Assembly (NCBI GenBank): GCA_032718475.1
Contig: JAUCBJ010007955.1
Coordinates: 124,001 to 188,000, forward strand
From: Nemertoderma westbladi
Lineage: Eukaryota > Animalia > Xenacoelomorpha
Reading direction: 5' to 3'
Length of the DNA: 64,000 bases
Below the pieces are notes generated by a model. The model saw only the letters and a list, made by a program, of their open reading frames with translations, was not told the DNA's origin and did not search any database. Shown one piece after another: positions 7,807 to 64,000 of this stretch; within the stretch, counting starts at the first letter, position 1, and every line of letters begins with the position of its first letter. The position numbers were made by a program, and so were the translations under genes.

Positions 7807-10800
7807 GTAATTTTGCATACATAAATTAATCTACACTATACTTGTGAAGCTAAGCCAGTTTGATATATTATTTTTCATTGAAATTGATTTTTTACGTATG
7901 GACTGTAGAAATAAGTGCTAAACGAAATAAATGTACAGATGATAGTGGCATAATTATTTATGGTAAAAGCCAATGGTTCAGAGAATGATGCCCTGTTGCT
8001 GGTAATGATGGCAATGGAGGAACATGTTCATTGGACATATTCCTAGTCCCAATATAAAAGTTTTAGAACGCCTCATGGACCAAACACTAGCCTCTACAGT
8101 CCTAGAGAGGAGAGAGGTCTGGGAGTGAGGAGGTGGACAACAGTAGCTTCTAAACTCCTGGAGAGAGGACTTGGAGTGAGGGGGTTGACAACAGTAGCTT
8201 TTACACTCGTAGAGGACTGGAAGTGAGGGGTTGACAACAGTAGCTTTTACACTCCTGGAGAGAGGACTTGGAGTGAGGGGGTTGACAACAGTAGGTTTTA
8301 CACTCCTGGAGGGAGGACTGGGAGTGAGGGGGTTGACAACAGTAGCATCTACACTCCTGGAGCGAGCTGGGAGTGAGGGGGTGGACTACAGGAGCCTGCA
8401 GATAGGACTGTGAGTGTGGGGGTTGACAACAGTAGCTTTTACACTCATGGAGAGAGAGGACTGGGAGTAAGAGGGTTGACAACAGTAGTCTACACTGCTG
8501 GAGAGAGGACTGGGTGTAAGGGGGTTGACAACAGTAGCTTCTACACTCCTGGAGAGAGGATTGGGTGTAAGAGGGTTGACAACAGTAGCCTCAAGACTCC
8601 TGGAGCGAGCTGGGAGTGAGGGGTGGACTACAGTAGCCTGGAGATAGGACTGGGAGTGAGGGGGTTGACAATGGTAGCTTCTACACTCCTGGAGAGAGGA
8701 GTGGGGGTGAGGGGGTTGACAACAGTAGTTACTACACTCCTGGAAAGAGGACTGGGAGTGAGGGGGTTAACAACAGTAGCTTTTACACTCCTGGAGAGAG
8801 GACTGGGTGTAAGGGGGTTGACAACAGTAGCTTCTACACTCCTGGAGAGAGGAGTGGGTGTAAGGGGGTTGACAACAGTAGATTCTACACTCCTGGAGAG
8901 AGGACTGGGAGTGAGGGGGTTGACAACAGTAGCTTCTACACTCCTGGAGAGAGGATTGGGTGTAAGGGGGTTGACAACAGTAGTCTACACTCCTGGAGAA
9001 AGGACTGGGTGTAAGGGGGTTGACAACAGTAGCTTCTACACTCCTGGAGAGAGGATAGGTTTAAGGGGGTTGACAACAGCAGTCTACACTCCTGGAGAGA
9101 GGACTGGGTGTATGGGGGTTGACAACAGTAGCTTCTACACTCCTGGAGAGAGGATTGGGTGTAAGGGGGTTGACAACAGTAGCTTCTACACTCCTGGAGA
9201 GAGGACTGGGAGTGAGGGGGTTGACAACAGTAGCTTCTACACTCCTGGAGATAGAGAGGACTGGGAGTGAGGGGATTGACAACAGTAGCTTTTACACTCC
9301 TGGAGAGAGGACTGGGAGTGAGGGGGTTGACAACAGTAGCTTCTACACTCCTGGAGAGAGGACTGGGAGTGAGGGGGTTGACAACAGTAGTTTCTACATT
9401 CCTGGAGATAGGACTGGGAGTGAGGGGGTTGACAACAGTAGCTTTTACACTCCTGGAGAGAGGACTGGGTGTAAGGGGGTTGACAACAGTAGCTTCTACA
9501 CTCCTGGAGAGAGGACTGGGGGTGAGGGGGTTGACAACAGTAGCTTCTACACTCCTGGAGAGAGGACTGGGAGTGAGGGGGTTGACAACAGTAGTTTCTA
9601 TCTTCCTGGAGATAGGACTGGGAGTGAGGTTGTTGACAACAGTAGCTTCTACACTCCTAGAGATAGAGAGGACTGGGAGTGAGGAGGTTGACAACAGTAG
9701 CTTCTACACTCCTGGAGATAGGACTGGGAGTGAGGGAGGTGACAACAGTAGCTTCTACACTCCTGGAGATAGGACTGGGAGTGAGGGCAGATCCAAGGCA
9801 GCATATTGTAGGCAGCATAGAGTAGTCTTGACTTAAATTAGTTTCATTCCATTGTTTCAGGAATACGTCAATAACAGAAAAGTTGAGGCAAAGAACAACA
9901 AAAAATATATTTTCAACAAATTGAATATTGTCGTGACAACTATATATGCACTGTATATTAATTGCACAAAACGTTTAAGTACTGTAGAAAAAAATAATTA
10001 AAAAAAGGCCAGTAGGTTTAATTACATAATCAATATGTGGGAAAACCACCACTACTTCAATGAGTGAATGATCTCAAACTGTCATCATGAGATTCAATTT
10101 ACCACTTTATTTGGTGGCATTATAGCTAATATTTGTTTTTTCAGAGAGCTCAGGCACAAACACAATGTCATACTTGCTAATTTGGCTGTGGCAGATTTGA
10201 TTGTGATTATCGTTGCCGGTGGAGGTGTAATCACTTCTGTTATATCGGATGGCGAAATCTACAACATGGAATTTTTTAAAGGGTGGTGGTGTGAAGTTGA
10301 TGCATGCATTTGTACTATCACCTGTCAGGTAATGCATTGAATGAATTAATAATATGGTGATCATCACTTTTTTCAAATCTTCCCTTTAAAGTACGAGGCG
10401 CCGGTAACATAGCTTGTATACAGTTTGTACTGTGTATACTGTTTATATAGTACTGTTTGTACTGTGTATACTGTTTATATAGTACTGTTTGTACTGTGTA
10501 TACTGTTTATATAGTACTTTTTGTACTGTGTATACTGTTTATATAGTACTGTTTGTACTGTGTATACTGTTTATATAGTACTGTTTGTACTGTGTATACT
10601 GTTTATATAGTACTTTTTGTACTGTGTATACTGTTTATATAGTACTTTTTGTACTGTGTATACTGTTTATACACAGTATAGACAGTTACACGGAGGCTGC
10701 AGCGCGCGTGGGGGAAACCCTACAGTGTTGTAATGGGCTGGGTCCGGACCCGAGTCTAACTCGCCATTATCCGTGGGGCTTCCCACTGCCTCCGTGGATC

Positions 10801-44382: not shown

Positions 44383-45951
44383 ATGCCAAAGTCTACTGGT
44401 AGAAGGAATAATTCCACAGTCGGTGCCAGTGGACAGACAGGTGAAACTTCCCAATCTAGCCCTGTATCATCAAGTCGGCCAAAAAGGAAGCGAGTTCAGA
44501 GTGCTAGAGCAGTGGAAGCGTCTGGAATAGAGATAACTCCACGTGCTTCCACTACTGCATCAAGTGTTGGTATGACTGAGAGCTCTTTGACAGTACCTGT
44601 GGAGGTTCCACACAACGTTCATCCTGGTAACAATGCAGCAGACAATCCTAGTACTACGAACAGCAATATTCATGCAGGTACTCAGGCCCAACCAGCTGCC
44701 AATATTACCACTGGTGTAGACAATCATCCAGTCACGGTTGCACCTTCCTTCCCATTACCTCCACAGCAATGGAACCCATACCAAATGCCATATGCATATC
44801 CATCGCTCCATCCAGCATATGGAATTCCGCCCAACTTTCAAAATCCTTACATATATAATAATAATTTCCCTACCCAGAGTGGGATTCTAAATCCTTATGC
44901 ACCTATCCCTGCTGGTACTACGACTCCATACTGGCCTTGCCCTCCTGCAATGCCTACCGGTACGAATGTATCTTCTACTAATGCCAATCCGAGACTGGAT
45001 CCACCGGTACATGCTGCAACATCTGGAATATCATCAAATATGAATACTGGTAGTCATTCAACTCCAGCATTCTCCACAGTTGGCCCACCGATGCAACCCC
45101 ATGCTGCTCAACTTCCAAGAATTAGTGAAGCAATACAAAATCTCGCAGGTGAGTCTGTTAATACTTTGGGCAATACTACTAAGGGTTTTGTACCTATTGA
45201 TGCCCTTGTTCCATTAGAAGTAAAGGAAAAGGTATGGGCACATAAATTTGTTGATCTTTCCATTTTACTATACAGTACCCCAACTAAATCAAAGCGTAAA
45301 TTTCCGATTTCACTTTCATCTGGAAATGTTAGTTGCCATTCTAGTCAGCAACCAGTTCTAGTATACGAAACAATGGAATCTCAGCAGCATAAGGAGATTA
45401 CCACCTTCGAAGAATGGCTGGTGGCCTGGAACATATTTTCATCAATTTATGAGGATAAATACCCCGCGGAGAGCAAGCATCTGAAGAAATACACTATTAT
45501 CTTGAAGGATATTAAGGATGGTGGAGGTTCATGGATGTTATATGATGAGAAATTTCGTTTATGCAAGCAAAACTCCCCATCGGATTATTGCTGGGGGGTC
45601 CCCCTGCAGGAATTATCCTTATTGGCCACAGCTAGGAAAGTTGGTAATTTCCCAATACCATACCGATATTGTTTCTCATACCATAGGGGAGAAAAATGTC
45701 TCACTTGTGATTTTAACCACTCTTGTCCCAATTGTGGCTCAAGTCACAGGCTCCTTAAGTGTCCCCATCCACTCCAGGGAGCTGAATCACAGCGGCCCTT
45801 TCGACATCCCGGTTCATTCTCGTCACGTGGCCAACGCGGCCCTTCCACAAAGGGAAGGGGAATGGATCGGAGGTCATTCTCGCGTGGCCAGTTCAACACT
45901 GGATTCCGCAACCGTTATTCTACCAACACCAGTAAATTGGGTGAAACTTAA
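44383..45951 (+). CDS. gag: Ngaro/DIRS ORF1 gag-like protein (522 aa)
   Basis: Low-complexity N-terminus, KVWAHKFVDLSILL, W..YDEKFR, zinc-finger-like CFSYHRGEKC..C.F.H.C..CG..H....C. Confidence 0.85.
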   Translation: MPKSTGRRNNSTVGASGQTGETSQSSPVSSSRPKRKRVQSARAVEASGIEITPRASTTASSVGMTESSLTVPVEVPHNVHPGNNAADNPSTTNSNIHAGTQAQPAANITTGVDNHPVTVAPSFPLPPQQWNPYQMPYAYPSLHPAYGIPPNFQNPYIYNNNFPTQSGILNPYAPIPAGTTTPYWPCPPAMPTGTNVSSTNANPRLDPPVHAATSGISSNMNTGSHSTPAFSTVGPPMQPHAAQLPRISEAIQNLAGESVNTLGNTTKGFVPIDALVPLEVKEKVWAHKFVDLSILLYSTPTKSKRKFPISLSSGNVSCHSSQQPVLVYETMESQQHKEITTFEEWLVAWNIFSSIYEDKYPAESKHLKKYTIILKDIKDGGGSWMLYDEKFRLCKQNSPSDYCWGVPLQELSLLATARKVGNFPIPYRYCFSYHRGEKCLTCDFNHSCPNCGSSHRLLKCPHPLQGAESQRPFRHPGSFSSRGQRGPSTKGRGMDRRSFSRGQFNTGFRNRYSTNTSKLGET

Positions 45952-47506
45952 TGATTATTTAGAGGGATATGATATACAGGAGCGAGAGTATTTACATAGC
46001 GGATTTACTTATGGATTTCGTTTAAACTATGAAGGTCCAAACATATCTACCATTACACCTAATTCAATCAGTGCCCAATCCAATCCGATAATAGTGACTC
46101 AGAAAATTAACAAAGAAATTGCGGCCGGAAGAATGGTGGGCCCATTTGATTCCCCACCATTTCCAAAGTACCATGTCAACCCAGTAGGCATAAGACCAAA
46201 GAAGAATCCAAATGAATTTAGAATGATCCATGATCTCTCAGCCCCACATAACGAATTATCAGTAAACTTTAACATATCATCCGATAATTCGTCTTGTTCA
46301 TACTACAAAGTTGAGGATGCTATCAATATGATCGTACGTGTAGGAAAGGGTTGTTATTTATCCAAAACGGACATATCTACAGCATTTCGGCTCATACCTA
46401 TATCACCTCAAGATTATCATCTGATGTGTACTAAATGGAAAGGAAAATGGTACTTTGATAAGTGTCTCGAAATGGGGGCCAGCTCCAGCTGTAAAATATT
46501 TGAACGATTCAGTTCCTGTTTACAATGGGTCGGTATTACTAAGTTAAATATTCCCGAACTTATACATGTCCTGGATGATTTCTTTCTTGCATCAAGTACA
46601 TATTATGACTGCAAGTCTCAATTAACACGGTTTTCTATATTTTGTGAAGAAGTTGGAGTTTTATTGGCCCCAGACAAAACCGAAGGCCCTAAACAAGTCC
46701 TTACATTCCTCGGGATTGAGCTTGATAGTGTTAACTTGGTAGCTAGATTACCTTCTGACAAAGTTGACCGAGCACTACAATCAGTACAAAATCTAAAGAT
46801 GAAAAGATGGGTGTTGAAACTAGAGCTCCTGTCCCTCATTGGTTTCCTCAACTTTGCATGTCAAGTGATTATACCAGGAAGAGCATTTCTCAGAAGGTTA
46901 ATAGACTTATCTATGTCAGTAACATCCGTGCATCATCGGGTTAGATTGAAGTCTTGGGCCAGGGCAGATCTGGTGGCCTGGGAGTCATTCCTTGTCGAAT
47001 TTAATGGATGCACTATGTTTATGAATGCTCATTGGAATTCAAACAATAGTATTGAACTTTTTTCAGATGCTGCCCAATCTAAAGGTTATGGGGCAGTGTT
47101 CCGCAACCATTGGTTCTTTGGGGAATGGCCTCCTGCTTGGGGGCTTTGTACCAATACATCATTGCTAGAACTTTACCCGATTATGTTAATATTACATATC
47201 TGGGGTCCAAACCTAGCAGGTATGAGGATTATCTTCCGCACAGATAATGAAGGACTTGTACCAATCTTAAATAAGAAAACATCTAAAAACCCACACATTA
47301 TGAATCTAATCCGTCGTATTGTTATATTATCAATGAAATATAATATATTATTTAGAGCGAGCCACATCTCAGGTGTAAATAACGTTAAAGCAGACCATCT
47401 TTCTCGTTTACAGATAGCATCATTTATGGAGATAGCGCCCGAAGCCGACAAGGACGCAACTCCGATTCCACCGCATCTGAGACCAGACGACTCCTTTTTC
47501 GATTGA
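45518..47506 (+). CDS. pol: Ngaro/DIRS ORF2 reverse transcriptase-RNase H (open frame)
   Basis: FRMIHDLS, KTDISTAFR, LEMGASSS, HVLDDF, FLGI; RNase H SDAA, LLELYPI, TDN, NVKADHLSR. Confidence 0.93.
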   Translation: MVEVHGCYMMRNFVYASKTPHRIIAGGSPCRNYPYWPQLGKLVISQYHTDIVSHTIGEKNVSLVILTTLVPIVAQVTGSLSVPIHSRELNHSGPFDIPVHSRHVANAALPQREGEWIGGHSRVASSTLDSATVILPTPVNWVKLNDYLEGYDIQEREYLHSGFTYGFRLNYEGPNISTITPNSISAQSNPIIVTQKINKEIAAGRMVGPFDSPPFPKYHVNPVGIRPKKNPNEFRMIHDLSAPHNELSVNFNISSDNSSCSYYKVEDAINMIVRVGKGCYLSKTDISTAFRLIPISPQDYHLMCTKWKGKWYFDKCLEMGASSSCKIFERFSSCLQWVGITKLNIPELIHVLDDFFLASSTYYDCKSQLTRFSIFCEEVGVLLAPDKTEGPKQVLTFLGIELDSVNLVARLPSDKVDRALQSVQNLKMKRWVLKLELLSLIGFLNFACQVIIPGRAFLRRLIDLSMSVTSVHHRVRLKSWARADLVAWESFLVEFNGCTMFMNAHWNSNNSIELFSDAAQSKGYGAVFRNHWFFGEWPPAWGLCTNTSLLELYPIMLILHIWGPNLAGMRIIFRTDNEGLVPILNKKTSKNPHIMNLIRRIVILSMKYNILFRASHISGVNNVKADHLSRLQIASFMEIAPEADKDATPIPPHLRPDDSFFD

Positions 47507-48190
47507 CTGAACTGGTTGAAACGTCATGGGAAATATCTACCATTGAGTCGTATAAAAGAACCTGGGTTAAATTTAGGTTGTTCCTTAACGAGGTCTTGAA
47601 TACCCCATTGATACTTCCTGTTGATCATACAGTCTTGGGATGCTTTGTTGCATATTTAGACTCCCAGCAAATGCATAGATCAACTATCGTGCAACACATG
47701 TCAGCTATATCCCTTCCCCACAAACTCTTACAACTAGATGACCCCACAAAATCGTTCTTAGTTTCTTGAGCATTAATTGGAATTGGGAAGCATATCGTAT
47801 GTCCTGATTCAAGGTTACCTATTACAAAGGCATTACTGTCGCGTATGTTATATGCTATTGATGTTATATACACTGATTCTTATAAGAGTTTGCTTATAAA
47901 ATCTATGTTTCTGGTTGCCTTTTATGGTTTTCTCAGAGTAGGTGAATTTTTGCCAAAGAAAGGACAATTGGGAAAATGGGTGCTTAGTTTTAAGGATGTG
48001 CAATTTGATAATAATATTGCTATTTTATTAATTAGGCATTTTAAGCACCAAAAACCACCATATGTACCAGCACGTGTCAGTATTTTAGATAATGAATACC
48101 ACAATCCAGTGAAAATATTACGGCATTATTTACACAACCGTCCATTGCAAAATGAAGATAGCCCATTGTTTATGTGGCAATCAGGTGACT
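47503..48190 (+). pseudogene. Tyrosine recombinase ORF3 with in-frame TGA at 47767 and 3' truncation
   Basis: STIESYKRTW, RLPIT, AFYGFLRVGE (catalytic Arg), PLF; HxxR and Tyr motifs missing; 47770-47844 reads through in frame. Confidence 0.88.
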
Positions 48191-48750
48191 ATACGAATGG
48201 GAGCGGAGCAGGCAACAGAGATTATACATAGGCAGATTAATATTTATACGTAGACATGATACAAATTTACAAGCAAAGGAACAGAAACAATAGATCAATA
48301 ACAGGTAACAGAACACGAGTGGGGCTTTCGGGCAGCAAAAGCTGCAAGCCATCTTGCGAATAATTATAATTATTCTATGGCTAGTTATTATATAGGCCTA
48401 TTCTGATATTGGCTTCCGACAATATTATGGTTTCCGACACACACACAGACTTTTGGAAAACGGCCATAGTAGAAGGAAAATTATTTGGAGAAGAAAATAT
48501 TTACTAATACAACAATTAATGGAACATACAAACTCTAGTGTAAACTAACAGATGGGGTGAGACACACTAAAAGGGAAACAACGAGCCAGGGCTTTCATAG
48601 GTGGTTGCAGGGACATGATAGAAGGCTATCTAGAATTCTAACAAGTTTAGGGCTTGGTATATAAACTCTGTGGTATATATTACATATGTAATATTATGTG
48701 TTTGTTCAGAAATGGAAAAATTGAGAAAGCGCGTCACCGGGGGTTGACCC

Positions 48751-49869: not shown

Positions 49870-51378
49870 TTCAATTACAGCGACCCTTACAGTTTCCCTA
49901 TGTCTCCCCTCGTTCAGTTACAGCGACAATTACAGTTTCCCTATGTCTCCAATCGTTAAGTTACAGCGACCCTTACAGTTTCCCTGTCTCCCCTCCCCTC
50001 GTTCAGTTACAGCGACCCTTACAGTTTCCCTGTCTACCCTCCCCTTGTTCAGTTACAGCGACCATTACAGTTTACATATGTCTCCCCTCGTTCAGTTACA
50101 GCGACCCTTACAGTTTCCCTGTCTTCCCTCATTCAGTTACAGCGACCCAGTTTCCCTATGTCTACCCTCGTTCAGTTACAGCGACCCAGTTTCCCTATGT
50201 CTCCCCCCGTTCAGTTACAGCGACCCTTACAGTTTCCCTGTCTCCCCCCGTTCAGTTACAGCGACCCTTACAGTTTCCCTATGTCTCCCCCTGTTCAGTT
50301 ACAGCGACCCTTACAGTTTCCCTATGTCTCCCCTCGTTCAGTTACAGCGACCCTTACAGTTTCCCTATTTCTACCCCCGTTCAGTTACAGCGACCCTTGC
50401 AGTTTCCCTATGTCTCCCCTCGTTCAGTTACAGCGACCCTTACAGTTTCCCTATGTCTCAACTCGTTCAGTTACAGCGACCCCAGTTTCCCTATGTCTCC
50501 CCCTGTTCAGTTACAGCGACCCCAGTTTCCCTATGTCTCCCCCTGTTCAGTTACAGCGACCACAGTTTCCCTATGTCTCCCTTCGTTCAGTTACAGCGAC
50601 CCTTACAGTTTCCCTGTCTTCCCTCATTCAGTTACAGCGACCCAGTTTCCCTATGTCTCCCCTCGTTCAGTTACAGCGACCCTTACAGTTACCCTGTCTC
50701 CCCTCGTTCAGTTACAGCGACCCTTACAGTTTCCCTGTCTCCCCTCGTTCAGTTACAGCGACCCTTACAGTTTCCCTATGTCTCCCCTCGTTCAGTTACA
50801 GCGGCCCTTACAGTTACCCTGTCTCCCCTCGTTCAGTTACAGCGACCCTTACAGTTACCCTATGTCTCCCCTCGTTCAGTTACAGCGACCCTTACAGTTT
50901 CCCTATGTCTCCCCTCGTTCAATTACAGCGACCCTTACAGTTTCCCTATGTCTCCCCTCGTTCAGTTACAGCGACCCTTACAGTTTCCCTATGTCTCCCC
51001 TCGTTCAATTACAGCGACCCTTACAGTTTCCCTATGTCTCCCCTCGTTCATTTACAGCGACCCTTACAGTTTCCCTATGTCTCCCCTCGTTCAGTTTCAG
51101 CGACCCTTACAGTTTTCCTGTCTCCCCTCGTTCAATTACAGCGACCCTTACAGTTTCCCTATGTCTCCCCTCGTTCAGTTACAGCGACCCTTACAGTTTC
51201 CCTATGTCTCCCCTCGTTCAGTTGCAGCGACTTTTACAGTTTCCCTAGGTCTCCCCCCGTTCAGTTACAGCGACCCTCACAGTTTCCCTGTCTCCCCTCG
51301 TTCAGTTACAGCGACCCTTACAGTTTCCCTATGTCTCCCCTCGTTCAGTTACAGCGACCACAGTTTCCCTATGTCTCA
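49870..51378. repeat. ~43-bp minisatellite (GTTCAGTTACAGCGACCCTTACAGTTTCCCTATGTCTCCCCTC)n
   Basis: About 35 tandem units with 39-43-bp variants; ORFs in all three + frames are artefacts. Confidence 0.97.
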
Positions 51379-51588
51379 CGTAATCCTCTGAAATTCAGCT
51401 GATTAAAATTCAAGAAAAAATGATGACAAAAATATACATTTTAAAAATATACATTTTAGAAATTTTATTTAGTTTATTTAAAAATATATTTTTATTTTTT
51501 TAGAAATAGAAATGTATACACCATGACCCGTAATAGTGTCATTTTCTCATGAGACGGAGAAGAAAAGTTAACATTTGATTTAAGATAA

Positions 51589-53768: not shown

Positions 53769-54218
53769 ATGGCCCATAATGGAATCTATAGCGATACAGA
53801 GATACCATTGGATGAAATCCCAGATCATCAGGAAGGCGTTTATGACGTCATACCGGATAAGATAATTTCCTCACCAACCACGTCACAGTCCTCACAGAAT
53901 ATAGGAGATCGCGTTAATGAGGGCCGTGTTGTTTCAGCTAGAAGTTGGTGGGTTGTGGTTATTATTGGAGTGTTGTTGGTTGCGTTGTTGGTGGTGGGGG
54001 CGACGATAGCAGCTTCGTCTTATTTACTTCAACAGAAGTTTACTGAACAGATTCGTGACTTGAACGACAGTACTATGATAAACAACTTAAATAAAACAGC
54101 GTCTGCCATAGTCTACCATGTTAAAGAATTTCCCGAACGGCTCTTGCCCCGCCTACTTACTATGATTACCATTGTGTCACCCCGCCCACTTACTATGGTT
54201 ACCATTGTGTATATGTAA
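53769..54218 (+). CDS. Putative single-pass type II membrane protein (149 aa), C-terminus possibly disrupted
   Basis: ATG in CATCATGG context; Tyr motifs (GIYSD, VYDVI); TM WWVVVIIGVLLVALLVVGATIAAS; N-glycosylation sequons NDS and NKT. Confidence 0.55.
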   Translation: MAHNGIYSDTEIPLDEIPDHQEGVYDVIPDKIISSPTTSQSSQNIGDRVNEGRVVSARSWWVVVIIGVLLVALLVVGATIAASSYLLQQKFTEQIRDLNDSTMINNLNKTASAIVYHVKEFPERLLPRLLTMITIVSPRPLTMVTIVYM

Positions 54219-54474
54219 CATATGTCACCACTGTGTATATGTGACATATGTGGTATAAGGCCAGTCCGCAGACGGAAGTTATTTAATTAATTCGTGTCTA
54301 CCGGTTGGCGTTTGACCTTGAACCGCAATAGGTAAAACCCAATATCGCTAAGCAACAAGTTGTGGGGCGAGCCGCGAATTGAGTGTAAGGTTATAGTATT
54401 TATAATATTATTTTTAATTTGATTATTATACTTAAATCCATCACCATTACTATTTTAAAATTTCTTCCACCACC

Positions 54475-54912
54475 TCACCCATTTATCCCGCTATCCTCGC
54501 TATCTACATCCTCCACATTATTACCATTACCACCGCCACCGCCTAACATCTCCAACATTCCCATCAACATCTCAATCCTTTCTTTCATCGCCTTCTCCCG
54601 CGCACACCTCTCAGCCTCCCTCGCTCTCCTAACCCCCTCAGCCGCCATCTCCAACTCCCAATCTTCTCCCCACACAATCTTGTTCTTTTTTGCCTCTTCC
54701 TCCAAATAATAATTTTTCTCTATCTCTTCCCACTCATTTCTCGGATTCAACAATCTCTCCAACCGCGATTCTTCTTTTTCTCTCTCGTAAATCGCCACCA
54801 GTATCATCTCATTCTCCTTATCAATTTCATCTGCTTCAATCTCATTTTCCTCCTCCTCCTCCTCCTTATCAACCTCATCCACCGCAATCTCATTTTCTCC
54901 CACCTCATCCAT
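54475..54912 (-). CDS. Highly acidic hypothetical protein (145 aa)
   Basis: Glu/Asp-rich ORF flanked by AT-rich spacers; no recognisable domain. Confidence 0.5.
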   Translation of the reverse strand: MDEVGENEIAVDEVDKEEEEEENEIEADEIDKENEMILVAIYEREKEESRLERLLNPRNEWEEIEKNYYLEEEAKKNKIVWGEDWELEMAAEGVRRAREAERCAREKAMKERIEMLMGMLEMLGGGGGNGNNVEDVDSEDSGING

Positions 54913-55137
54913 AATATATATATAGTATAATAAATAAAATAAATATGTGTATAATAATAAATAATACTATAAATAAATTTATATAATATTTATTTCAATC
55001 GATAATTCATTATACCAACAAATAATTTACCACCACAAAATAATAATAATAATAATTTAACCATGTCTGGCTCGCTGCAGCGACACTGCCTACGAACAGG
55101 GTCTATTTATATAATAAAGTTTCTACCGCTCGAAGAT

Positions 55138-56436
55138 TCACACTGAATGTTTATTCTTCTTTATTTGAGGTTGCCCATTAGTCTCGATTTCATTGAAAAT
55201 GTCTTCACCATCATCCATATCATTTACGATGTCCTCTTCAAAGTCGCTGATATCTTCATACGCATAGCTAGGTGTTTTATTCACGATGAGATCAATTTTT
55301 CGCTTAAGCGCTTGTTCTTTCATGGCTTTAGGTGTTTTCATCTTCATCTGAGCACTCACACCCCCAACAAGGGTATCAATATCCTTATAATCATTATTTT
55401 TTTCAGCGCCGTCTACCCGTTCATTTTCTGCAATCGCGGGCAACCAGATTTTTTTCTCATCCATTTTCTTAGCAGTGACTTTTACTGCTTCGGACGTCTT
55501 CAGCTGACTAGCGTTGTTCGGCATTTCCACTTTCATTAGTTCCTCGTCCGCTAATTCATCAATCGCAGCCTCAACAACTAACTTTTTAATCGGTAGAAAC
55601 TCACACCCAGACGGGATATCGTAGCCCGCGTACTTCTGTAATTGCTTAATTATCTGGACATTTGTGTTGTTTCGAGGGATGAAAATAACCTTGGTGTCGA
55701 AGTTGTGGGACAAATATATCCCGTTTTCGTTAACGGTTGATGTGTACCTCATACTAACCTCATCGATATTCTCCTTAACATTCTTATCTATGTTAAAGTC
55801 GAGCAAACAGAATTCATCCGCTCTGAGATTCAACCCATCGTAATATAGAACACCCTTCCATTGTCTACCTATATCATCCGCTTCCCAAACGCCGACAAAT
55901 CATTGCCCTTCAAAGTCGTAGATATATCCAATGTACCCACAATCTTCGAACTCCATAAAATTATCACCGTGAATTTCCTTTTTCTTCGGTTCAATACGGG
56001 AAAGAACGACTTTGCCGTAGATGCTTTGTAAGACATCTAGAATTTTTCGCGAGATAAAAATTGATGCGCCGTTTTTCCCAATGCGTAAGTACGCGTGATT
56101 TATTGGCGTTGTAAGCAAATTGCCTCTGGTGTATTCCTTGTAATATTCAATGGCTATTTTCTTATAATTGAGGAAGTCAAATAGGAATCTTATGTTCTGG
56201 TAAGTAAGACTTACCGATTCTTGCACGACGTTGCGTCCTTTGGTATCACCCCAACGGTTGAATCGAACGTATCTCCCGTTAAATGCTTTTATTTCTATTC
56301 CTTCCCCCAAACACTCGAGGCCCCACACACTCTTACCTGTAATCACCGATACGTATGGGGCGGGCTCACTATCAGTAGAGCTACCGCTTAATGACATCAT
56401 TTTTGGTTGTGATGGTTTCACAGATTCCATCAACAA
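55138..56436 (-). pseudogene. ~430-aa protein with tandem PC4-like (ssDNA-binding) modules, one in-frame TGA at 55900-55902
   Basis: ORFs 55900-56436 and 55138-55833 share a frame with open sequence between them. Modules AFNGRYVRFNRW...ESVSLTYQNIRFL and DFEGQ*FVGVWE...DGLNLRADEFCLL resemble the PC4 pattern F.G...V.IR....GI.L...W/F..L. Confidence 0.55.
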
Positions 56437-57019
56437 ATTTTGCGAAATATTAATAATTAAGTGTAAAAATACAATAATATCACGCTAAACAATGTGCAAA
56501 AAATATGAAATAATGAATTATAACCCGAATGACGAAATAAAGTATTTTACGACGTATTTATAATATAATGATGGGCTATCGGGATAACGGGTATATTTTA
56601 ACCACTCAACCGGTTTAATCGCTATTGTCCTGAGAGAATTTTTTTTTTAAAAACTTCCTAAATTTCAAAGGAAATATTTATTTACGCTTAAATTGGTTGA
56701 TATAAGTGGTAACAGCTTGCGGTGGCGATTAATGCGGTCTATATAAATTTTTATAGACACACCCCCGAAATTCCACAGAATATTACTCACGGTTAAATTG
56801 ATTGACGTCAACTGTATTAACTGTGTAGCTTCTTAGAAGTTTCATAATTTTAAGCATGAGCGAATTTAATTTAATGTCGGCATCGCAAACTTTCTCTCCC
56901 GATGGATATTTTTCTGTAATCATTTACTAAAAACGAATGATTGCGGCGCACGAACGACGTTTTAAAGACACACCCATTATAAATATACCCATTGGTCAAA
57001 ATATTATTGATTAAGCGAC

Positions 57020-57652
57020 ATGACAATACTGGGGCAGCTTGAGTCTATAGATAAGATCATTTTTTCAAATATATTATTCATTGTTACCTTTCTTTTCGGA
57101 ATTTTTTTAGGTAAAATACGCCGTAATAAAAAAATGTTTCCAATAATACAAGCTGAAAATAGTTACCGCGGTCCTAATTCAATTATTCCAATTAAAATTG
57201 AATTGTTAAGCACGGCAGCTCGGGCACCTGTATGCGGTTCATATAGTCCAGCTGGGATTGACATATATAGCGCCGTGAATAGAACAATAGAGCCGCACTC
57301 ACGAATGTTAATTGAGACGGGTGTTAAAATATATTTACCCGCCAATTATTTTGGAAGAATTACACTGACTTTTAGCTTGACAAAAATTGGCATTGATGTT
57401 GCAGAATGTGCGGTCGATTCCAGTGTCGCGCGCGGTAATATAGATCAACTTGTAATTATATTGATTAACAACACATCTAAGGAATACGTTGTAACATCGG
57501 GCAATAAAATATGCCAGCTTATATGCCAACAATGTAATGCGGCAATACTCTACGTTTCTAATATTTATTCGGATGATTATTTTGGGCTTTTACCGACGAA
57601 TTTAACGCCGTATGGGGAAGAGATTAATTCAGCATTTCACCGCACATATTAA
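57020..57652 (+). CDS. dUTPase-like protein with degenerate catalytic motifs and N-terminal hydrophobic segment
   Basis: AGIDIYS (motif I), LIETGVKI, YFGRI, ILIN, GNKICQLI (motif IV); motifs II and III altered, motif V absent. Confidence 0.85.
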   Translation: MTILGQLESIDKIIFSNILFIVTFLFGIFLGKIRRNKKMFPIIQAENSYRGPNSIIPIKIELLSTAARAPVCGSYSPAGIDIYSAVNRTIEPHSRMLIETGVKIYLPANYFGRITLTFSLTKIGIDVAECAVDSSVARGNIDQLVIILINNTSKEYVVTSGNKICQLICQQCNAAILYVSNIYSDDYFGLLPTNLTPYGEEINSAFHRTY

Positions 57653-58106
57653 ATATGTGACATTAAACGCATAACACCAAACTCGGGTGGTGACACATGT
57701 CAATACTATTTCAATACTCTTACACGCGATTATACAACATAGTTAATAGAGCATATAAATAGGATAATTGTCAGTTCAGTAAATTTTGGTTGGTTAAACG
57801 GTTTCTAGCGCGGGTGGCTGGTTGACTGGGTATTGGATATATTTATCTACATAAAATCTGCCGCATCTCTTTCATCGGCATATTGTAAATATGTTTTCTG
57901 TACCTACGTTAATAAATATATTATAATCGTAATAATAATAATAATTATAATGATGGAGATTAATTGCATTTTTTGCGGTTGTACTATACTTAAGAAAAAT
58001 TATTTACGGCATTTACGCACATTTCGATGGGTATGTTTGCGATAATTGTAATTGCCGAACTACTTCTGAAAGAATAGCAATATTTCACAGTAATAGATGT
58101 TGCGGG

Positions 58107-61100
58107 TTGTCTCGCCCGAATTACATCTACCGTGGTTACACGCTATCCTGCCCGACATGCTCTGATGATTTTGAAAACTTCGATTCATATATCGAACATA
58201 GTTGCCATCAAAACCATTACAATTCCCGCAAACGCAAACATAACCAAAAACAATCAGAACCGACATTTCAATCGGATCTCAACGTTGGTTCGCCTGTAAG
58301 CATTACAAACAGCTCAGATACACCCAACGAAGGTTTTCATCTCTCAAAAACATGTCACGAATCACGCGTTCAGGAATATACTCATAATGTACCATCTAAT
58401 GAGATGTATCCGGATGTGCCGAATTATTTAAATTATATGGGGATATATGCTTCGCGCGCTTTTAACACGGCTGCATCGGCTTTCATTGATATGTTTTATA
58501 AAGTGTGGGTGATTGCTTCGGTGATAATGGAACGTGATGATGCTAATTATACTCTACAAGAAGAATTCCATTTTACTTCGATCGGTACAGATAATTATAT
58601 TGAAAATAGCTCGGATTTTGACGAATGGTACTACACAGTCATTTCCCATATCGGTCCATTCCCCCATCGGTTATTATAATGGTGATAAAATTTTCAATAG
58701 TTCAACTAAAAAATTGATGTTAACCCAATTTGATAAGTATGAGTACGGTGTGCATCTAAAATTATTGCGCTTTTATATTCATCATGGTATACGCTTGATT
58801 AAAGTTCATAAACTTATTAGATTTAAGCAAGGTTACATTTTTAAGGAGTTTATTGAATATAACACCCAGCAAAGAAAAATAGCAAGCGATGATGACTTTT
58901 ATGATAAGTTTCACAAAGGAACAAATAACGCGCTTTTCGGGAAAAGCATGGAGAATATACGGGACCGTGTCTCATTTCGCTTATGTAATTCAATCGAGAA
59001 ATGTGACTTATTATTATCCAAGCCGAATCACGAAAATTTAATTATGTTCACTGATTCATTATCAGGTCACGTCCTATCTAAGACTGCGGTTTGTTTGCAT
59101 AAACCTATTTTTTTAGGCCAAGCTGTATTGGACCTGTCGAAGTTAGATTATTACAGTTTCTTCTACGAGAAATTAAAGCCCCTGGAAGCCGAATTAAATT
59201 GTAGTATAAATTTGTTAGGTGGGGACACGGATTCTTTTTTTTTACAGTGTGTTGGTTTATCCCAACACCAATTTTTATCTGCGTTACAATTAAAAAAAGT
59301 TTTAGACTGTTCAAATTATCCTATTACACATCCGTTGTATACAGTAGAACAGAAAGGGAAATATAGATATTTAAAGGATGAAGGGAAGTCTATCCCGTTT
59401 GACCAGGTTATTTTACTTAGACCAAAATGTTATAGCTTTCGTGGGGGGTCAGTTCCAAAACGTGTCGCTAAAGGCGTAGGAAAAATGGTTATAAAAAAGA
59501 AACTCTCCCACGAATCATATTTAAAAGTATATAACGACGTAGGGTGGTCCTTATTTCAATGTAAAATTTAAAAGTTGTGGAAATTCACCCCTGACCCCCC
59601 CAAGTCCTTTCTTCTGATAAAAAAACACCTTGAGTAAAATTTGAGCACAAATGATATATATTTAGAAGTAGCTCAAACACCCTGAAGTTGAGCGTTTGGA
59701 CACCGTTTGATCGCGCGCGAAGAATATAATAGATTTGCTGATATGAAGGCTTCTGTTGGTCGTACATAGTTAATTTTAGGCTTAATCGAACCGCAATCAT
59801 CGATTTAGTGAGTGTAGATACCTTCAAAACAAGTGCTAAGCTAGTAGTTCTTGAGATATCACACAAAAGCTTAAGCCCGGCAGAACTCATCAATCTATCA
59901 TTCAATTGATTGCGCCAAGGACATATTGAAATATTGGCATTAACATTCTGTAGGTCTTCTACCTCCCCCTCCCTGCATCTTATTTCAGTTAAACTCTATT
60001 TTAGCATTGTCTAACCATTCAAAGCTATGTTTAGTAAAAACATTTCATCACAAACCAATGGGAAATGCTTGCACGAGCATCACTAATTTGTGCCTAAGCG
60101 CCATTTGGTACGATATCAATAATTGGCCTCAAAACTTAACTTTTGGTTAATTATATCTAGGAACTGTTCATTTAATTTGATTTTGACTGATTTTAAGGTG
60201 CAGAGCCCAAAAATCTCATCTGATTTGTATTTTAAAATGATATAGTGCACGATATACAACAATACCATATTGTACTTCAAAGCATATTAAAAGGATTGAT
60301 AGATACAGTGATATGTGCATCAAGCGACCATAAGAGTACTATATGGGAAGCTTTGAACATATGCATTATACATAATTAGACAATGCTGATTTCAAATCTG
60401 ATTTCACATTTGCCCTGCCCCATCAAGTTTTCTCACAATTGCCAATTTGAATTCAAAAAACTTATCGCAAACGACTATGATGAGTGATGTAGATGATTCA
60501 AATGAGAATCAAATATGCTCAAAATCAATCTAAAACATTGAATGGAGCTTTGTTTATATGAATTATATATAACTAAAACAATGCTGATTCCAAATCGGCT
60601 TTCAGATTTGCCATGCTGCCATAGCATATCAAGTTTTTTCACAATTGCCAATTTGAGTTCAAATTACTTATTGCGAACAACTGTGATGAGTGAAGTAGAT
60701 TCAATAATAATCAAATAGGCTCCAAATCAATATAAAACATGGAAAAGAGCTTTGTTAATTTGAGTTATATATTAAACAATACAATCTATATGGTGAATCT
60801 GCTATCAGATTTACCATAGCATATGTTGTAGATTGATTTGGAGGCATATTTTATTATTATTGAATCTACTTTCACTCCATAACAATTGTTTGCGATAAGT
60901 AATTTGAATTCATATTGGCAATTGTGAAAAAACTTGATATCATATGGCAGTATGGCAAATCTGAAAGCAGATTTGGAATCAGCATTGTTTAATTATATAT
61001 AATTCATATAAAGCAAAGCTCCATTCAATGTTTTAGATTGATTTTTAGCATATTTGATTCTTATTTGAATCTACGCCACTCATCACAGTCGTTTGCAATA

Positions 61101-62216
61101 AGTTTTTAAACTCAAAGTGGCAATTGTGAAAAAACTTGATGTGGTAGGGCAAATGTGAAATCAGATTTGAAATCAGCATTGTCTATTTATGTATAATGCA
61201 TATGTTCAAAGCTTCCCATATAGTACTCTTATGGTCGCTTGATGCACATATCTCTGTATCTATCAATCCTTTTAATATGTTTTGAAGTACAATATGGTAT
61301 TGTTGTATATCATGCACTATATCATTTTAAAATACAAATCAGATGAGATTTTTGGGTTCTGCACCTTAAAATCAGTCAAAATCAAATTAAACTAACAGTC
61401 CCCAGATATAATTAACCAAAAGTTAAGTTTTGAGGCCAATTATTTATATCGTACCAAATGGCGCTTAGGGACTAATGGGTGATGCTCGTGCAAGCATTTC
61501 CCATGGGTTTGTGATTAATTTTTTTTTACTAAACATAGCTTTGAATGGTTGGGCAATGCTGAAATCGAGATAAATTTAAATAAGACTTAGGGAAGTAGAC
61601 CTAAAAAATGTTAATGCCAATATTTCAATATGTCCTTGGCGTAATCAACTGAATGATCGATTGATGAGTTGTGCCGGGCATAAGCTTTTGTGTGATATCT
61701 CAAAAACTACTAGCTTAGCACTTGTTTTGAAGGTATCTACACCCACTAAATCGATGATTGCGGTTCAAATAAGCCTAAAATTAACTCTGTACGACCAACA
61801 GAAGCCTTCATATCAGCAAACTCTATTATATTCGGCAATCAATCGGTGACCAGACGCTCAACTTCAGTGTGTTTGAGCTACCTCTAATATTTGATGTACA
61901 TGCTTAAAATTTCGCGTGTCGTATTTTTTGACGATATGGAAACATTTGAGGGGGTCAGAGATGATAAATTCCAACCTTTCAAAATAAGGACCACCCTAAA
62001 ACGAGGTTAGCGAGCATTACGAATACAGTCAAAGGTTTCAATCTAATTTACATAAAATATACACCGTTTCACAAAGAAAAAAATCGCTAACACTGTGGGA
62101 AGATAAAAGATACTACACATCGACTAATGAAAGTCTACCTTTCGGCCATTATAAAACACATTTGGATCGTAAAGCGCCTGCCCCTAAGCTTTATATACCG
62201 CCCATTATAGAATAGC
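58107..62216 (+). pseudogene. Protein-primed family B DNA polymerase (Polinton type), internally deleted and interrupted by a foldback element
   Basis: N-terminal Zn-finger-like segment; KGTNNALFGKS (motif B), GGDTDS (motif C), KDE, LRPKCYS, AKGV; C-terminal KSLTLWEDKRYY...LPFGHY resumes at ~62000. Exonuclease domain and motif A are missing. Confidence 0.92.
59542..61996. mobile_element. ~2.45-kb foldback DNA transposon (near-complete palindrome) flanked by TA
   Basis: TIR GGGTGGTCCTTATTT / AAATAAGGACCACCC; arms ~1.2 kb with loop ~60735-60830; ~200-bp internal subrepeats; mirrored ORFs 59585-59905(-) and 61661-61849(+). Confidence 0.93.
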
Positions 62217-62224
62217 GGATTGCG

Positions 62225-62722
62225 ATGTCTTTTAGTGTTGTCAACAGTAATATAAGTTTGAGGTTGGTTGATGGGTGCATATCATTCGATGTGCTGGCTA
62301 AACGAATTCGAAATGGAAAACTCATCTTAAAGCCTTTTCAATATATCACCAAAATTTGCGGATGGACGACGTGTCTCTTTTTCCCGAGCGGTAAGGTCAC
62401 TGTACTCGGTAAATCGCCTAAAATAAAAAAAATTATTAAGTATATATATAAGCATACTGATTATAAACTAACTTTTATTTCAATCAATAGCCAAACTTAT
62501 ATTATTAACAATCTAGACATAGACTATAGGAAATTAATGAAAACGGTCGGGTTTCATTTTTTAGATAATTATTATAATGTGGAGGTGAAATATGAGCCGG
62601 AGATATTTAATAATATTCTTGCGCAGTTTCATCGTCGGGGTAAAACTAGTTCTAATATCATAACATTTTGCGTTTTTTACACACGAAATGTTGTGTGTAT
62701 GGCAAGACCCGGGATATTTTGA
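62225..62722 (+). CDS. Divergent TATA-binding-protein-like protein
   Basis: Two TBP-like repeats: VVNSNIS...LAKR...TCLFFPSGKVTVLG and INSQT...YEPEIFNNI...FCVFYTRNVVCMA; intronless. Confidence 0.78.
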   Translation: MSFSVVNSNISLRLVDGCISFDVLAKRIRNGKLILKPFQYITKICGWTTCLFFPSGKVTVLGKSPKIKKIIKYIYKHTDYKLTFISINSQTYIINNLDIDYRKLMKTVGFHFLDNYYNVEVKYEPEIFNNILAQFHRRGKTSSNIITFCVFYTRNVVCMARPGIF

Positions 62723-63221
62723 GTATTTTTTCCAAAGTTTTTGAATTTTATTGGTAATTTAGATAGTCATTTAGGTAGAAATATTTAATTTTTTCATTTC
62801 TGGTGCCAGTTTTAGGTTTGTCCGGCGGGATCTCGTTAGGTTTTTAAATAAACTATTACTATTACTTTAAATATTACTATTATTCACATTATATATAACG
62901 TGTTTTATCGGTAGTCTTAGGTTGTCAAGGGCGTCAATTTCATTTCTGATGTCGGTTTATATTTACATAAATCTAGTCTATCTGTCTATTTGTCGGTCTT
63001 TCTGTCAGTCAGTATGTCAAAATTAATTCATTGTTCGCGTTATATAATGTATTTTATTAATTATCGATGTTAGGTTTTAAAGAGTGCTGGTTTCTATAAT
63101 TGCTCGGTTTTATCGCGTGAAAAACCCCACCCACGCATATACTCGATACTATTTATAACGGTGGCGGTGTTTTATTACTTACTATTATTGTTCTCGTTTA
63201 TATAAGTTATTAATATATGTA

Positions 63222-63683
63222 ATGAAATCACTCAAAGCTTTAATTAAACAATTTGACGGGGATTTAAAGTTCTTATCTAACGCCTCCCTTAACCGTAGAA
63301 AAACCTTCTTACGCGTCGGTGGAACCGATGAACTTATAAGTTTTCCAATTAATATTATTCTAAATGTATTAAATGGTAACGTCAAAATTCCTGAGCAAAC
63401 AATCGCGAGGTTAAAACGCCATAAAAAAACAATACGCGAGATCGCTAAAAAACCAAAAGCCAAGTATCCTATTCGAATTTACCGTAAACGATTGGTGCAA
63501 AGGGGCGGATTTATAAATCTACTAATCTCTGGTTTAATGAGTGGGCTTAACGCTTATCAGAAAATATCACCCATAATAACGGCTGTAAGAGGCAGAAAAT
63601 TAGCCCAATCCCGCTGGGGGTATAGACCTAGTACCTCTGGTACACGCGTCAACCGTCAAGTTTCTAGGTTTCCCATCTACTGA
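63222..63683 (+). CDS. Conserved small basic Polinton/adintovirus protein with QxGGF and an amphipathic helix
   Basis: NVLNGNVKI...LKRHKKTIREIA...RLVQRGGFINLLISGL, a pattern I recall from Maverick ORFs next to the ATPase. Confidence 0.8.
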   Translation: MKSLKALIKQFDGDLKFLSNASLNRRKTFLRVGGTDELISFPINIILNVLNGNVKIPEQTIARLKRHKKTIREIAKKPKAKYPIRIYRKRLVQRGGFINLLISGLMSGLNAYQKISPIITAVRGRKLAQSRWGYRPSTSGTRVNRQVSRFPIY

Positions 63684-63700
63684 GTGGCTACCTATCAACA

Positions 63701-64000
63701 ATGTCCCGAGAGCCGACGATATCGCAGGAACCAATCACATCATACGACGCCTCTTTCAAGATGGGTTCGGCCATGATTATTGCGGGTCCAAGTTCTTCCG
63801 GAAAAACAGTGCTGGTATCAAAAATTGTAAAAAATAAAAATTTAGTTTTTGATATAACCCCGAAGCGTGTATTATTCTTTTATGGCGCCACCCCACCCGA
63901 ATTCCCAGGTATAACACATCTATTCAAAGGTTTACCGCAAAAAATTAATTCTATTTTCCGCGAAAACGATCTAATTATTATAGACGACTTGTTAAGCGAA
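63701..64000 (+). CDS. DNA-packaging ATPase (A32/FtsK-HerA family), N-terminal 100 aa, runs off the window
   Basis: MIIAGPSSSGKT (Walker A), PKRVLFFYG, KGLP, LIIIDDL (Walker B). Confidence 0.92.
   Translation, partial: MSREPTISQEPITSYDASFKMGSAMIIAGPSSSGKTVLVSKIVKNKNLVFDITPKRVLFFYGATPPEFPGITHLFKGLPQKINSIFRENDLIIIDDLLSE

Follow-up and report, generated by a model that had tools for sequence, protein, structure and literature searches.

A predicted TBP-family gene, split between two reading frames, in a decayed Maverick/Polinton element of Nemertoderma westbladi

The window analysed here is a stretch of 64,000 nucleotides (nt) from the xenacoelomorph Nemertoderma westbladi (assembly GCA_032718475.1, contig JAUCBJ010007955.1, positions 124,001 to 188,000 of the forward strand), and it holds the left part of a Maverick/Polinton-type element that begins near position 54069 of the window and extends past the window end. 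On the minus strand the visible genes are an acidic open reading frame (ORF) and a longer gene, and on the plus strand they follow in the order dUTPase-like gene, protein-primed DNA polymerase B (pPolB), a gene resembling that of the TATA-binding protein (TBP), a gene termed GGF and a packaging ATPase. The element shows two marks of the Mavericks/Polintons, the protein-primed family B DNA polymerase, which is broken in this copy, and the packaging ATPase, of which the first 100 codons are visible; ORFs labelled by eye as integrase, protease and capsids occur in related loci, and the window ends before that part of the element. Sibling copies were followed in Logan contigs; the four DNA runs behind these cover three samples and three studies, with runs X1 and X2 representing one sample, and single contigs on the element have a depth of about 1600–3300 compared with 28–41 on the flank (runs X1 and X3). 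This Maverick/Polinton is multicopy, and the copy in the window is decayed; the depths, which are not copy numbers, hint at tens of copies.

The TBP-like ORF (62225..62722, plus strand, 165 codons) is intronless and begins 9 nt downstream of the stop of pPolB, with the GGF and ATPase genes next in order; its coordinates, its place between the pPolB end and the basic-protein and ATPase genes and its TBP identity had been proposed in an original prediction made from the letters of the window, and all three are borne out. The first repeat is well formed, the second is degenerate, and the ORF stops before the last helix. Pfam PF00352 matched the ORF at E 0.0017 and 18.6 bits, below the gathering score of 22.9, and the top three of the four matches in a PDB sequence search were TBP (E 0.007–0.009); the ESM Atlas gave 0.94 to TBP clusters, with a low recognition value. 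Searches with the ORF alone yielded no homologue, with 0 of 18 candidates in one and, in a set of 1.84 billion representatives, nothing at E 0.001 in the other, and its single-sequence fold was useless (pLDDT, the predicted local distance difference test score, of 32). With a profile of 13 Maverick TBPs the ORF was found at E 1.5e-9, as the sole significant match among the six-frame ORFs of the window. The model built from a 16-row alignment of the ORF and 15 relatives, and hence not independent of that alignment, reached a pLDDT of 73, with values mostly above 90 in the first repeat and of 42–64 in the second. All matches to this model listed by Foldseek in the PDB to rank 44 were TBP chains (best E 9.7e-9, identity 16–23%), and giant-virus TBP-like proteins matched it in the viral library at E 1e-7 to 1e-5. 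The TBP fold is in this way recovered for the ORF, with the second repeat modelled at low confidence.

Several residues of the window protein are conserved in the 15 relatives, namely N7 (15/15), F53 (14/15), E124 (13/15), E126 (15/15), F128 (15/15) and F151 (15/15). Three of the four DNA-contact Phe positions are retained (F53, F128 and F151); the first intercalating Phe position, F38, is shared by 0/15 relatives, and the siblings read other letters at that codon. The second Asn position aligns unreliably. E124, E126 and F128 align with yeast E186, E188 and F190, of which the two acidic residues belong to the TFIIB-binding stirrup and F190 is a DNA-intercalating residue. Judged by its sequence and its modelled fold, the ORF at 62225..62722 is a genuine TBP-family gene.

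Related loci were sought in viral contigs and phages, where a single pPolB query found no locus and a query with an alignment of 30 pPolB sequences did, giving 82 related loci, most of them short contigs in which absence means little. A TBP ORF is present in 15 of the 82, and all 13 of the relatives' TBPs that were tested pass the PF00352 cut-off. Where the ATPase was also seen, in 13 loci, eight carry TBP. Searching viral contigs with a TBP alignment gave 74 pattern matches and no confirmed locus, and the TBP of a relative had no match in phages. The position of TBP between pPolB and ATPase, whose recurrence in other copies and genomes the original prediction had proposed as a check, was found likewise in related loci such as L055, L059 and L068.

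A pPolB tree of 30 rows was made from the window and 29 loci; 30 loci had been chosen, of which L044 contained a stop and was removed, and neither L055 and L072 nor a further 50 loci entered the tree. A branch with support 100/99 has all 14 TBP-bearing rows on the same side, and the four rows with an ATPase and no TBP seen stand apart. The window belongs to a set of 12 rows (100/98) together with the TBP-bearing L008, L012, L030, L057, L059, L065 and L068. As read from these alignments, the TBP gene is a lineage trait inherited across a pPolB clade, and it may have had a single origin in this Maverick clade.

All 13 aligned relatives have, in one frame and beyond the last conserved Phe, a K-x4-G strand followed by the final helix. 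The TBP ORF of the window ends 14 codons beyond F151, and the last helix lies outside the ORF, in the −1 frame (62686..62757, plus strand). This tail was compared in a fixed-register test that starts four codons after F151 and was designed after the sequence had been seen and after two loose tests. Against the first repeat of the same protein the −1 frame scored 25, a value reached by 0/6496 background starts, 0/2428 open ones and 0/2000 shuffles, and against the tails of the relatives it scored 1.1, exceeded by 5/2500 starts, 11/1500 open ones and 8/500 shuffles. The ORF's own frame at the same register scored −31 and −14, respectively. By the one fixed-register test the −1 tail is homologous to the last strand and helix of TBP, though diverged; by the two looser ones it is not. 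The frame switch lies near a run of six T (62673–62678) and before 62690; the original prediction had noticed the helix-like −1 tail, which exists, and had placed the switch at about 62708, later than the interval of about 62673–62689 found here.

Sibling copies carry the same break. One 332-nt sibling contig with a depth of 3345 spans 62378–62709 without a gap, two more contigs bridge the stop gapless, and in the two covering runs, from two studies, no sibling indel row was present at the frame switch among those with a reported share of at least 5%. The sole indel listed in the TBP-like gene at the 5% share among siblings is at 62365 and is in-frame. One further run, presumably of RNA, gave no contig over the TBP gene, a result that has no bearing on expression. 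Because sibling copies in two studies have the same frame break, the split is family-wide and is neither an assembly error nor private damage, so that the suggestion that this copy may be frameshifted was right about the break and wrong in making it a matter of this copy. Splicing was considered as the cause of the split and rejected by inspection of the DNA letters, as none of the GT-AG pairs has both a workable length and a workable phase and also spares the conserved YEPE motif.

In 11 long loci (eight TBP-bearing, three with no TBP seen) upstream words were compared over 130 nt before the genes for virion proteins, packaging and integrase, with 500 draws of random stretches of the same locus as the null. 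One hexamer precedes most late genes in seven of the eight TBP-bearing loci. It is ATAAAC in L059 (6/7 genes), L068 (5/5), L008 (6/6), L012 (7/7) and L030 (4/4), and TTAAGC in L026 (5/6) and L039 (6/7); the null matched these results in 1, 0, 2, 0, 21, 4 and 4 of the 500 draws, respectively. The word is a sense-strand word, since six of the seven loci have no antisense occurrence and the seventh has 1, and it is missing before the TBP gene itself in 6/7 loci. For two of the three loci without TBP seen no shared upstream word was found. By analogy, the pattern fits a viral TBP that would read a private late box with host RNA polymerase II (Pol II).

The word differs between two pPolB subclades, TTAAGC being that of L026 and L039 and ATAAAC that of L059, L068, L008, L012 and L030. 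Such subclade-specific words would fit each TBP co-evolving with its own box. The TATA boxes that the original prediction had pointed out inside the element, TATATAAA at 56740 and TATAAATA at 56978, are present and are not specific, since TATAAA is common (14 sites in 54300–59530 and 131 in 1–54300). Another hexamer, TAGGTT, occurs on the plus strand four times within the 462 nt that separate the GGF gene from the TBP-like gene (62813–63076) and a fifth time 37 nt ahead of the start of the ATPase (63665). It was rejected as a promoter, for its 2/2000 as a named word becomes 295/2000 for any such hexamer, and window-wide it is found 35 times against 47 expected.

The polymerase gene itself (pPolB, 57950..62215, plus strand), traced by homologues, by tblastn of relatives and by sibling contigs, is extensively damaged, and the original prediction had overlooked how far. 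The search for homologues gave 75, the best at E 8e-66, and PF03175 is present in many of them. The frame of the gene is broken near 58017, where the siblings differ by an indel, and about 750 codons are gone near 58655. When four full-length relatives were mapped to it by tblastn, residue 194 of the relative P0013 fell only about 290 nt from residue 958. Sibling contigs end near this deletion. Near the C-terminus the gene is interrupted by a palindromic non-autonomous insertion of about 2.46 kb (59538..61999, nested inverted repeats I1–I14) of the miniature inverted-repeat transposable element or foldback type, which has a 5-letter duplication at its ends; sibling contigs in 4/4 runs skip it, joining 59532 to 62000. 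The insertion is almost wholly palindromic, with nested 200-nt repeats and TAGGG-like termini. Relative to the siblings, the private lesions of this copy are the stop at 55900–55902, the pPolB frame break and the foldback insertion. With a pPolB that is out of frame, has lost a large part of its length and carries the foldback inside it, this copy is dead and unable to replicate on its own.

Upstream of pPolB lies a dUTPase-like gene (57020..57652, plus strand), likewise overlooked before, which matches Pfam PF00692 at E 2.6e-13 and PHROG 135 at E 2.1e-13. Its product has a hydrophobic N-terminal stretch, and its catalytic motifs look degenerate by eye against the known motifs; it may be a pseudoenzyme. 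None of the ORFs in the 82 related loci was a clear counterpart of it (best E 0.27). The acidic ORF (54475..54912, minus strand, 145 codons) gave only a weak Pfam match below the cut-off and none in PHROGs. Downstream of TBP, the GGF gene (63222..63683, plus strand) encodes a basic protein with a QRGGF motif, and its phmmer matches adjoin the ATPase in L001 (E 6e-9), L068, L055, L059 and others, by which GGF is identified as a conserved Maverick neighbour of the ATPase. The predicted ATPase (63701..64000, plus strand), whose first 100 codons precede the window end, has a Walker A motif and weak Pfam P-loop matches, and it matches the ATPase of L068 at E 6e-14.

The probable left end of the element (54069..54300) starts with AGT and continues in short tandem repeats. 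Low-depth contigs of the host flank cease matching at 54069 in three runs, and a single AGT stands at the start, with short direct repeats (D9, D12 and D13) near it. Mavericks are characterised by terminal inverted repeats that end in (AG)3 or (AGT)2 and by a target duplication of 6 bp, and the window holds the left end only. An ORF at 53769–54218, which has a hydrophobic segment and tyrosine motifs, enters the left end of the element. Flank contigs in X1 and X3 carry other sequence after 54069, as would fit an empty site, and a host exon may have been interrupted here. The remainder of the window is transposon-dense, with BEL/Pao-like, DIRS-like and RTE-like remnants recognised by eye, and fits an animal genome. 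A DIRS-like retroelement at 44383–48352 has a gag-like ORF, an overlapping reverse transcriptase/RNase H ORF and a recombinase-like fragment recognised by eye, and Pfam matches RVT_1 at E 1.7e-7 in 45518–47506. Long tandem-repeat arrays at 7978–9836 and 49943–51402 give repetitive pseudo-ORFs in several frames.

The explanation favoured here, with slightly better than even confidence, is that the element is a decayed Maverick of a TBP-bearing lineage, in which TBP is likely a late-promoter factor and in which the split likely leaves a truncated product in this host. The TBP of the lineage would act by bringing host Pol II to the private TATA-like word that precedes virion and packaging genes; TBP would bind the word, and the retained acidic stirrup would recruit host TFIIB. 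The frame split would be a lesion fixed in the master copy of the latest burst, which is the simplest and most likely reading of it, and the master may have copied on without a whole TBP or with TBP supplied by rarer copies. In the element family of this host the product is likely truncated and either weak or inactive. The original prediction had the element encode its own factors to redirect host Pol II, and for TBP this is likely at the level of the lineage, given the 15/82 loci, the retained residues and the word in 7/8 loci; the part assigned to PC4 is not supported, and the gene at 55138–56430 stands outside the mechanism proposed here.

A number of observations weigh against this explanation. 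The window TBP is 16–28% identical to Maverick TBPs in pairwise comparison, close to its 16–23% with cellular TBPs, and the pPolB branch of the window is long (1.3), so its exact place in the tree is unsure. The score of the −1 tail against the relatives' tails, 1.1, compares with 17–38 for the relatives' own tails; X-joined read-throughs gave no gain in local hidden Markov model score for the tail, its free placement was not significant (153/600), and the fixed-register test was conceived only after the sequence was seen. As to the promoter word, L015 has TBP and no shared word (499/500 in the null), and L073, with no TBP seen, has the canonical TATAAA before 5/7 genes (12/500). The late-gene labels were given by eye and chosen after the upstream sequences had been seen, the eight loci amount to about five lineages, and the two visible late genes of the window, too few to establish a shared word, have no ATAAAC within 110 nt. 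Finally, a family that copied on with its other genes open and its TBP split sits awkwardly with an essential role for TBP.

Among the alternatives, one that is unlikely and yet deserves some weight is that the 165-residue product is functional as it is, a lopsided TBP whose first repeat binds element DNA at promoters or termini and for which the last helix is dispensable. Such a protein would accord with the modelled confidence, high in the first repeat and low in the second, and with a 165-codon ORF that is open and common to the element family, and the second repeat has extra residues relative to all relatives, suggesting relaxed constraint before the split. Every aligned relative nevertheless retains the last helix, which is known to pack on the sheet of the second lobe in solved TBPs, and a tail that can still be recognised points to a recent loss, not to a long adaptation.

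A programmed split, in which the ribosome or the polymerase slips near the T run and a minority of full-length TBP keeps the late switch low and tunable, is considered quite unlikely. The split is indeed common to the dominant sibling form, unlike the three other lesions checked (the 55900 stop, the pPolB break and the foldback), the −1 tail is open for the expected length as well as homologous, and a hairpin follows the T run. By inspection, however, the reading frame holds no canonical X XXY YYZ slippery heptamer, though a non-canonical site may exist, and the hairpin abuts the T run without a spacer, where 5–9 nt is usual for the hairpin of a −1 frameshift. The hairpin is also weak (z −1.8, −1.6 and 0.1, with folds at least as good in 10, 12 and 103 of 200 shuffles), and six T are short for slippage by Pol II. 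All 13 aligned relatives use one frame, and the siblings are near-identical, so the open tail requires no selection. The bolder proposal that the clade runs the smallest known viral late switch, made of one TBP and a lineage variant of the TATA word read with host Pol II and gated here by programmed −1 recoding, with virion genes expressed only once TBP is made at full length, must be regarded as distinctly doubtful.

The model of the original prediction, in which TBP and tandem PC4-like genes jointly form an element-encoded Pol II initiation module, is improbable. What had been taken for a tandem pair (55138..56430, minus strand) is a single gene of about 430 codons broken here by a stop, because the siblings lack that stop: at 55900–55902 they read another letter in 4630/4678, 28024/28024 and 5634/5634 depth units (three runs, two studies). 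The product is beta-rich in its N-terminal two thirds and ends in an acidic and basic low-complexity tail, and it might be a nucleic-acid-binding early protein. Two of its stretches look like a PC4 unit by eye, other Mavericks have true PC4-family genes (that of L001, with PF02229 in 23 of its 41 homologues), and the small-gene family beside TBP in L026, L028, L035 and L039 is weakly like PC4 (HHalign 42%, E 3e-4). However, with the stop read through, no PC4 was found in the gene by Pfam, PHROGs, PDB sequence search or the ESM Atlas, and a profile of the 41 Maverick-type PC4 proteins missed it. HHalign of the PC4 profile with the product gave just 8–9 column matches, elsewhere in the protein; the units matched by eye lie within shuffle noise (42/300 and 35/300), and no internal repeat was found. 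A profile of other small genes from TBP-bearing relatives also missed the gene, and it had no homologue among the ORFs of the 82 loci. Nor do PC4-family and TBP genes co-occur consistently in relatives: L001 has the one clear PC4-family gene among them, with no TBP seen, and L008, L012, L059 and L068 have TBP with no PC4-family gene seen. On these sequence and profile comparisons neither the PC4 identity of the gene nor the proposed module is supported, though the gene may conceivably have a very remote PC4 fold.

As a separate observation on those relatives, a pair of paralogous small genes lies just before TBP in L026 (7095–8158), L039 (2105–3235), L035 (1376–2558) and L028 (4397–5489), followed in L026, L039 and L035 by an ORF that looks exonuclease-like by eye.

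Intronless and TBP-like as the ORF is, a recent retrocopy of host TBP landed in the element is scarcely credible and is excluded because its identity to solved cellular TBPs is low (16–23%, animal TBP cores being near-invariant, with no relative at E 0.001 among the 1.84 billion representatives), because TBP is present in sibling copies, and because distant elements have it in the same position between pPolB and ATPase.

With the Mavericks/Polintons (adintoviruses) as described by Barreat and Katzourakis 2021 (PMC8097293), the element shares pPolB, packaging ATPase, intronless genes, an AGT-starting end and multicopy occurrence with mostly decayed copies. The main text of that paper gives eight core genes with no TBP among them, and the terms TBP, TATA and PC4 occur in it 0 times. 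That a polinton-like virus can have a TBP-like gene has been noted in print before, since Starrett et al. 2021 (PMC8502044) give a TBP abbreviation in the legend of Fig. 5 on MELD viruses with adintovirus-like PolB, and the bioRxiv version agrees with this. That label is a legend abbreviation only, in a section on non-animal datasets; the parts of the paper covered hold no spread, promoter word or mechanism, and one of its supplements searched for TBP gave 0 matches. Among the papers listed in the literature searched, none treats the TBP of an animal Maverick together with a late promoter word; those on promoter motifs concern, by title, virophages and polinton-like viruses of protists. The search lay outside subscription journals, Repbase reports and bioRxiv supplements, where such an annotation may exist.

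A similar model is known from the TBP mimics of beta- and gamma-herpesviruses (BcRF1 of Epstein–Barr virus, ORF24 of Kaposi's sarcoma-associated herpesvirus and UL87 of human cytomegalovirus) with their TATT late boxes (PMC4893493), in which, in the part of that source covered, a viral TBP-like protein and a variant TATA word direct host Pol II to late genes. The herpesvirus mimics are described there as acting in a six-protein complex, whereas the Maverick protein would be a stand-alone TBP core of 150–200 residues with a putative function. With cellular TBP (PF00352) and the TBPs of large DNA viruses it shares the two-repeat saddle fold, the Asn, three Phe positions and the acidic stirrup. 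It differs from cellular TBP in its identity of about 20%, in the unconserved first intercalating Phe position and in the last helix, which is out of frame in the window. Giant viruses encode their own polymerase; in contrast, no RNA polymerase was seen in these TBP-bearing Maverick elements.

The weight of the finding is limited by the dead copy in the window and by the unsupported partnership with PC4. It has long been asked whether animal Mavericks make virions and by what means, and a clade-wide TBP, encoded by the element and paired with a word that stands ahead of capsid and packaging genes, would be a concrete candidate for the trigger of late expression, in parallel with the herpesviruses and apparently with one protein. 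The element family seems to have multiplied with its TBP split, which makes it a natural experiment: either intragenomic copying needs no late switch, transposition then being separate from virion production, or recoding gates the switch.

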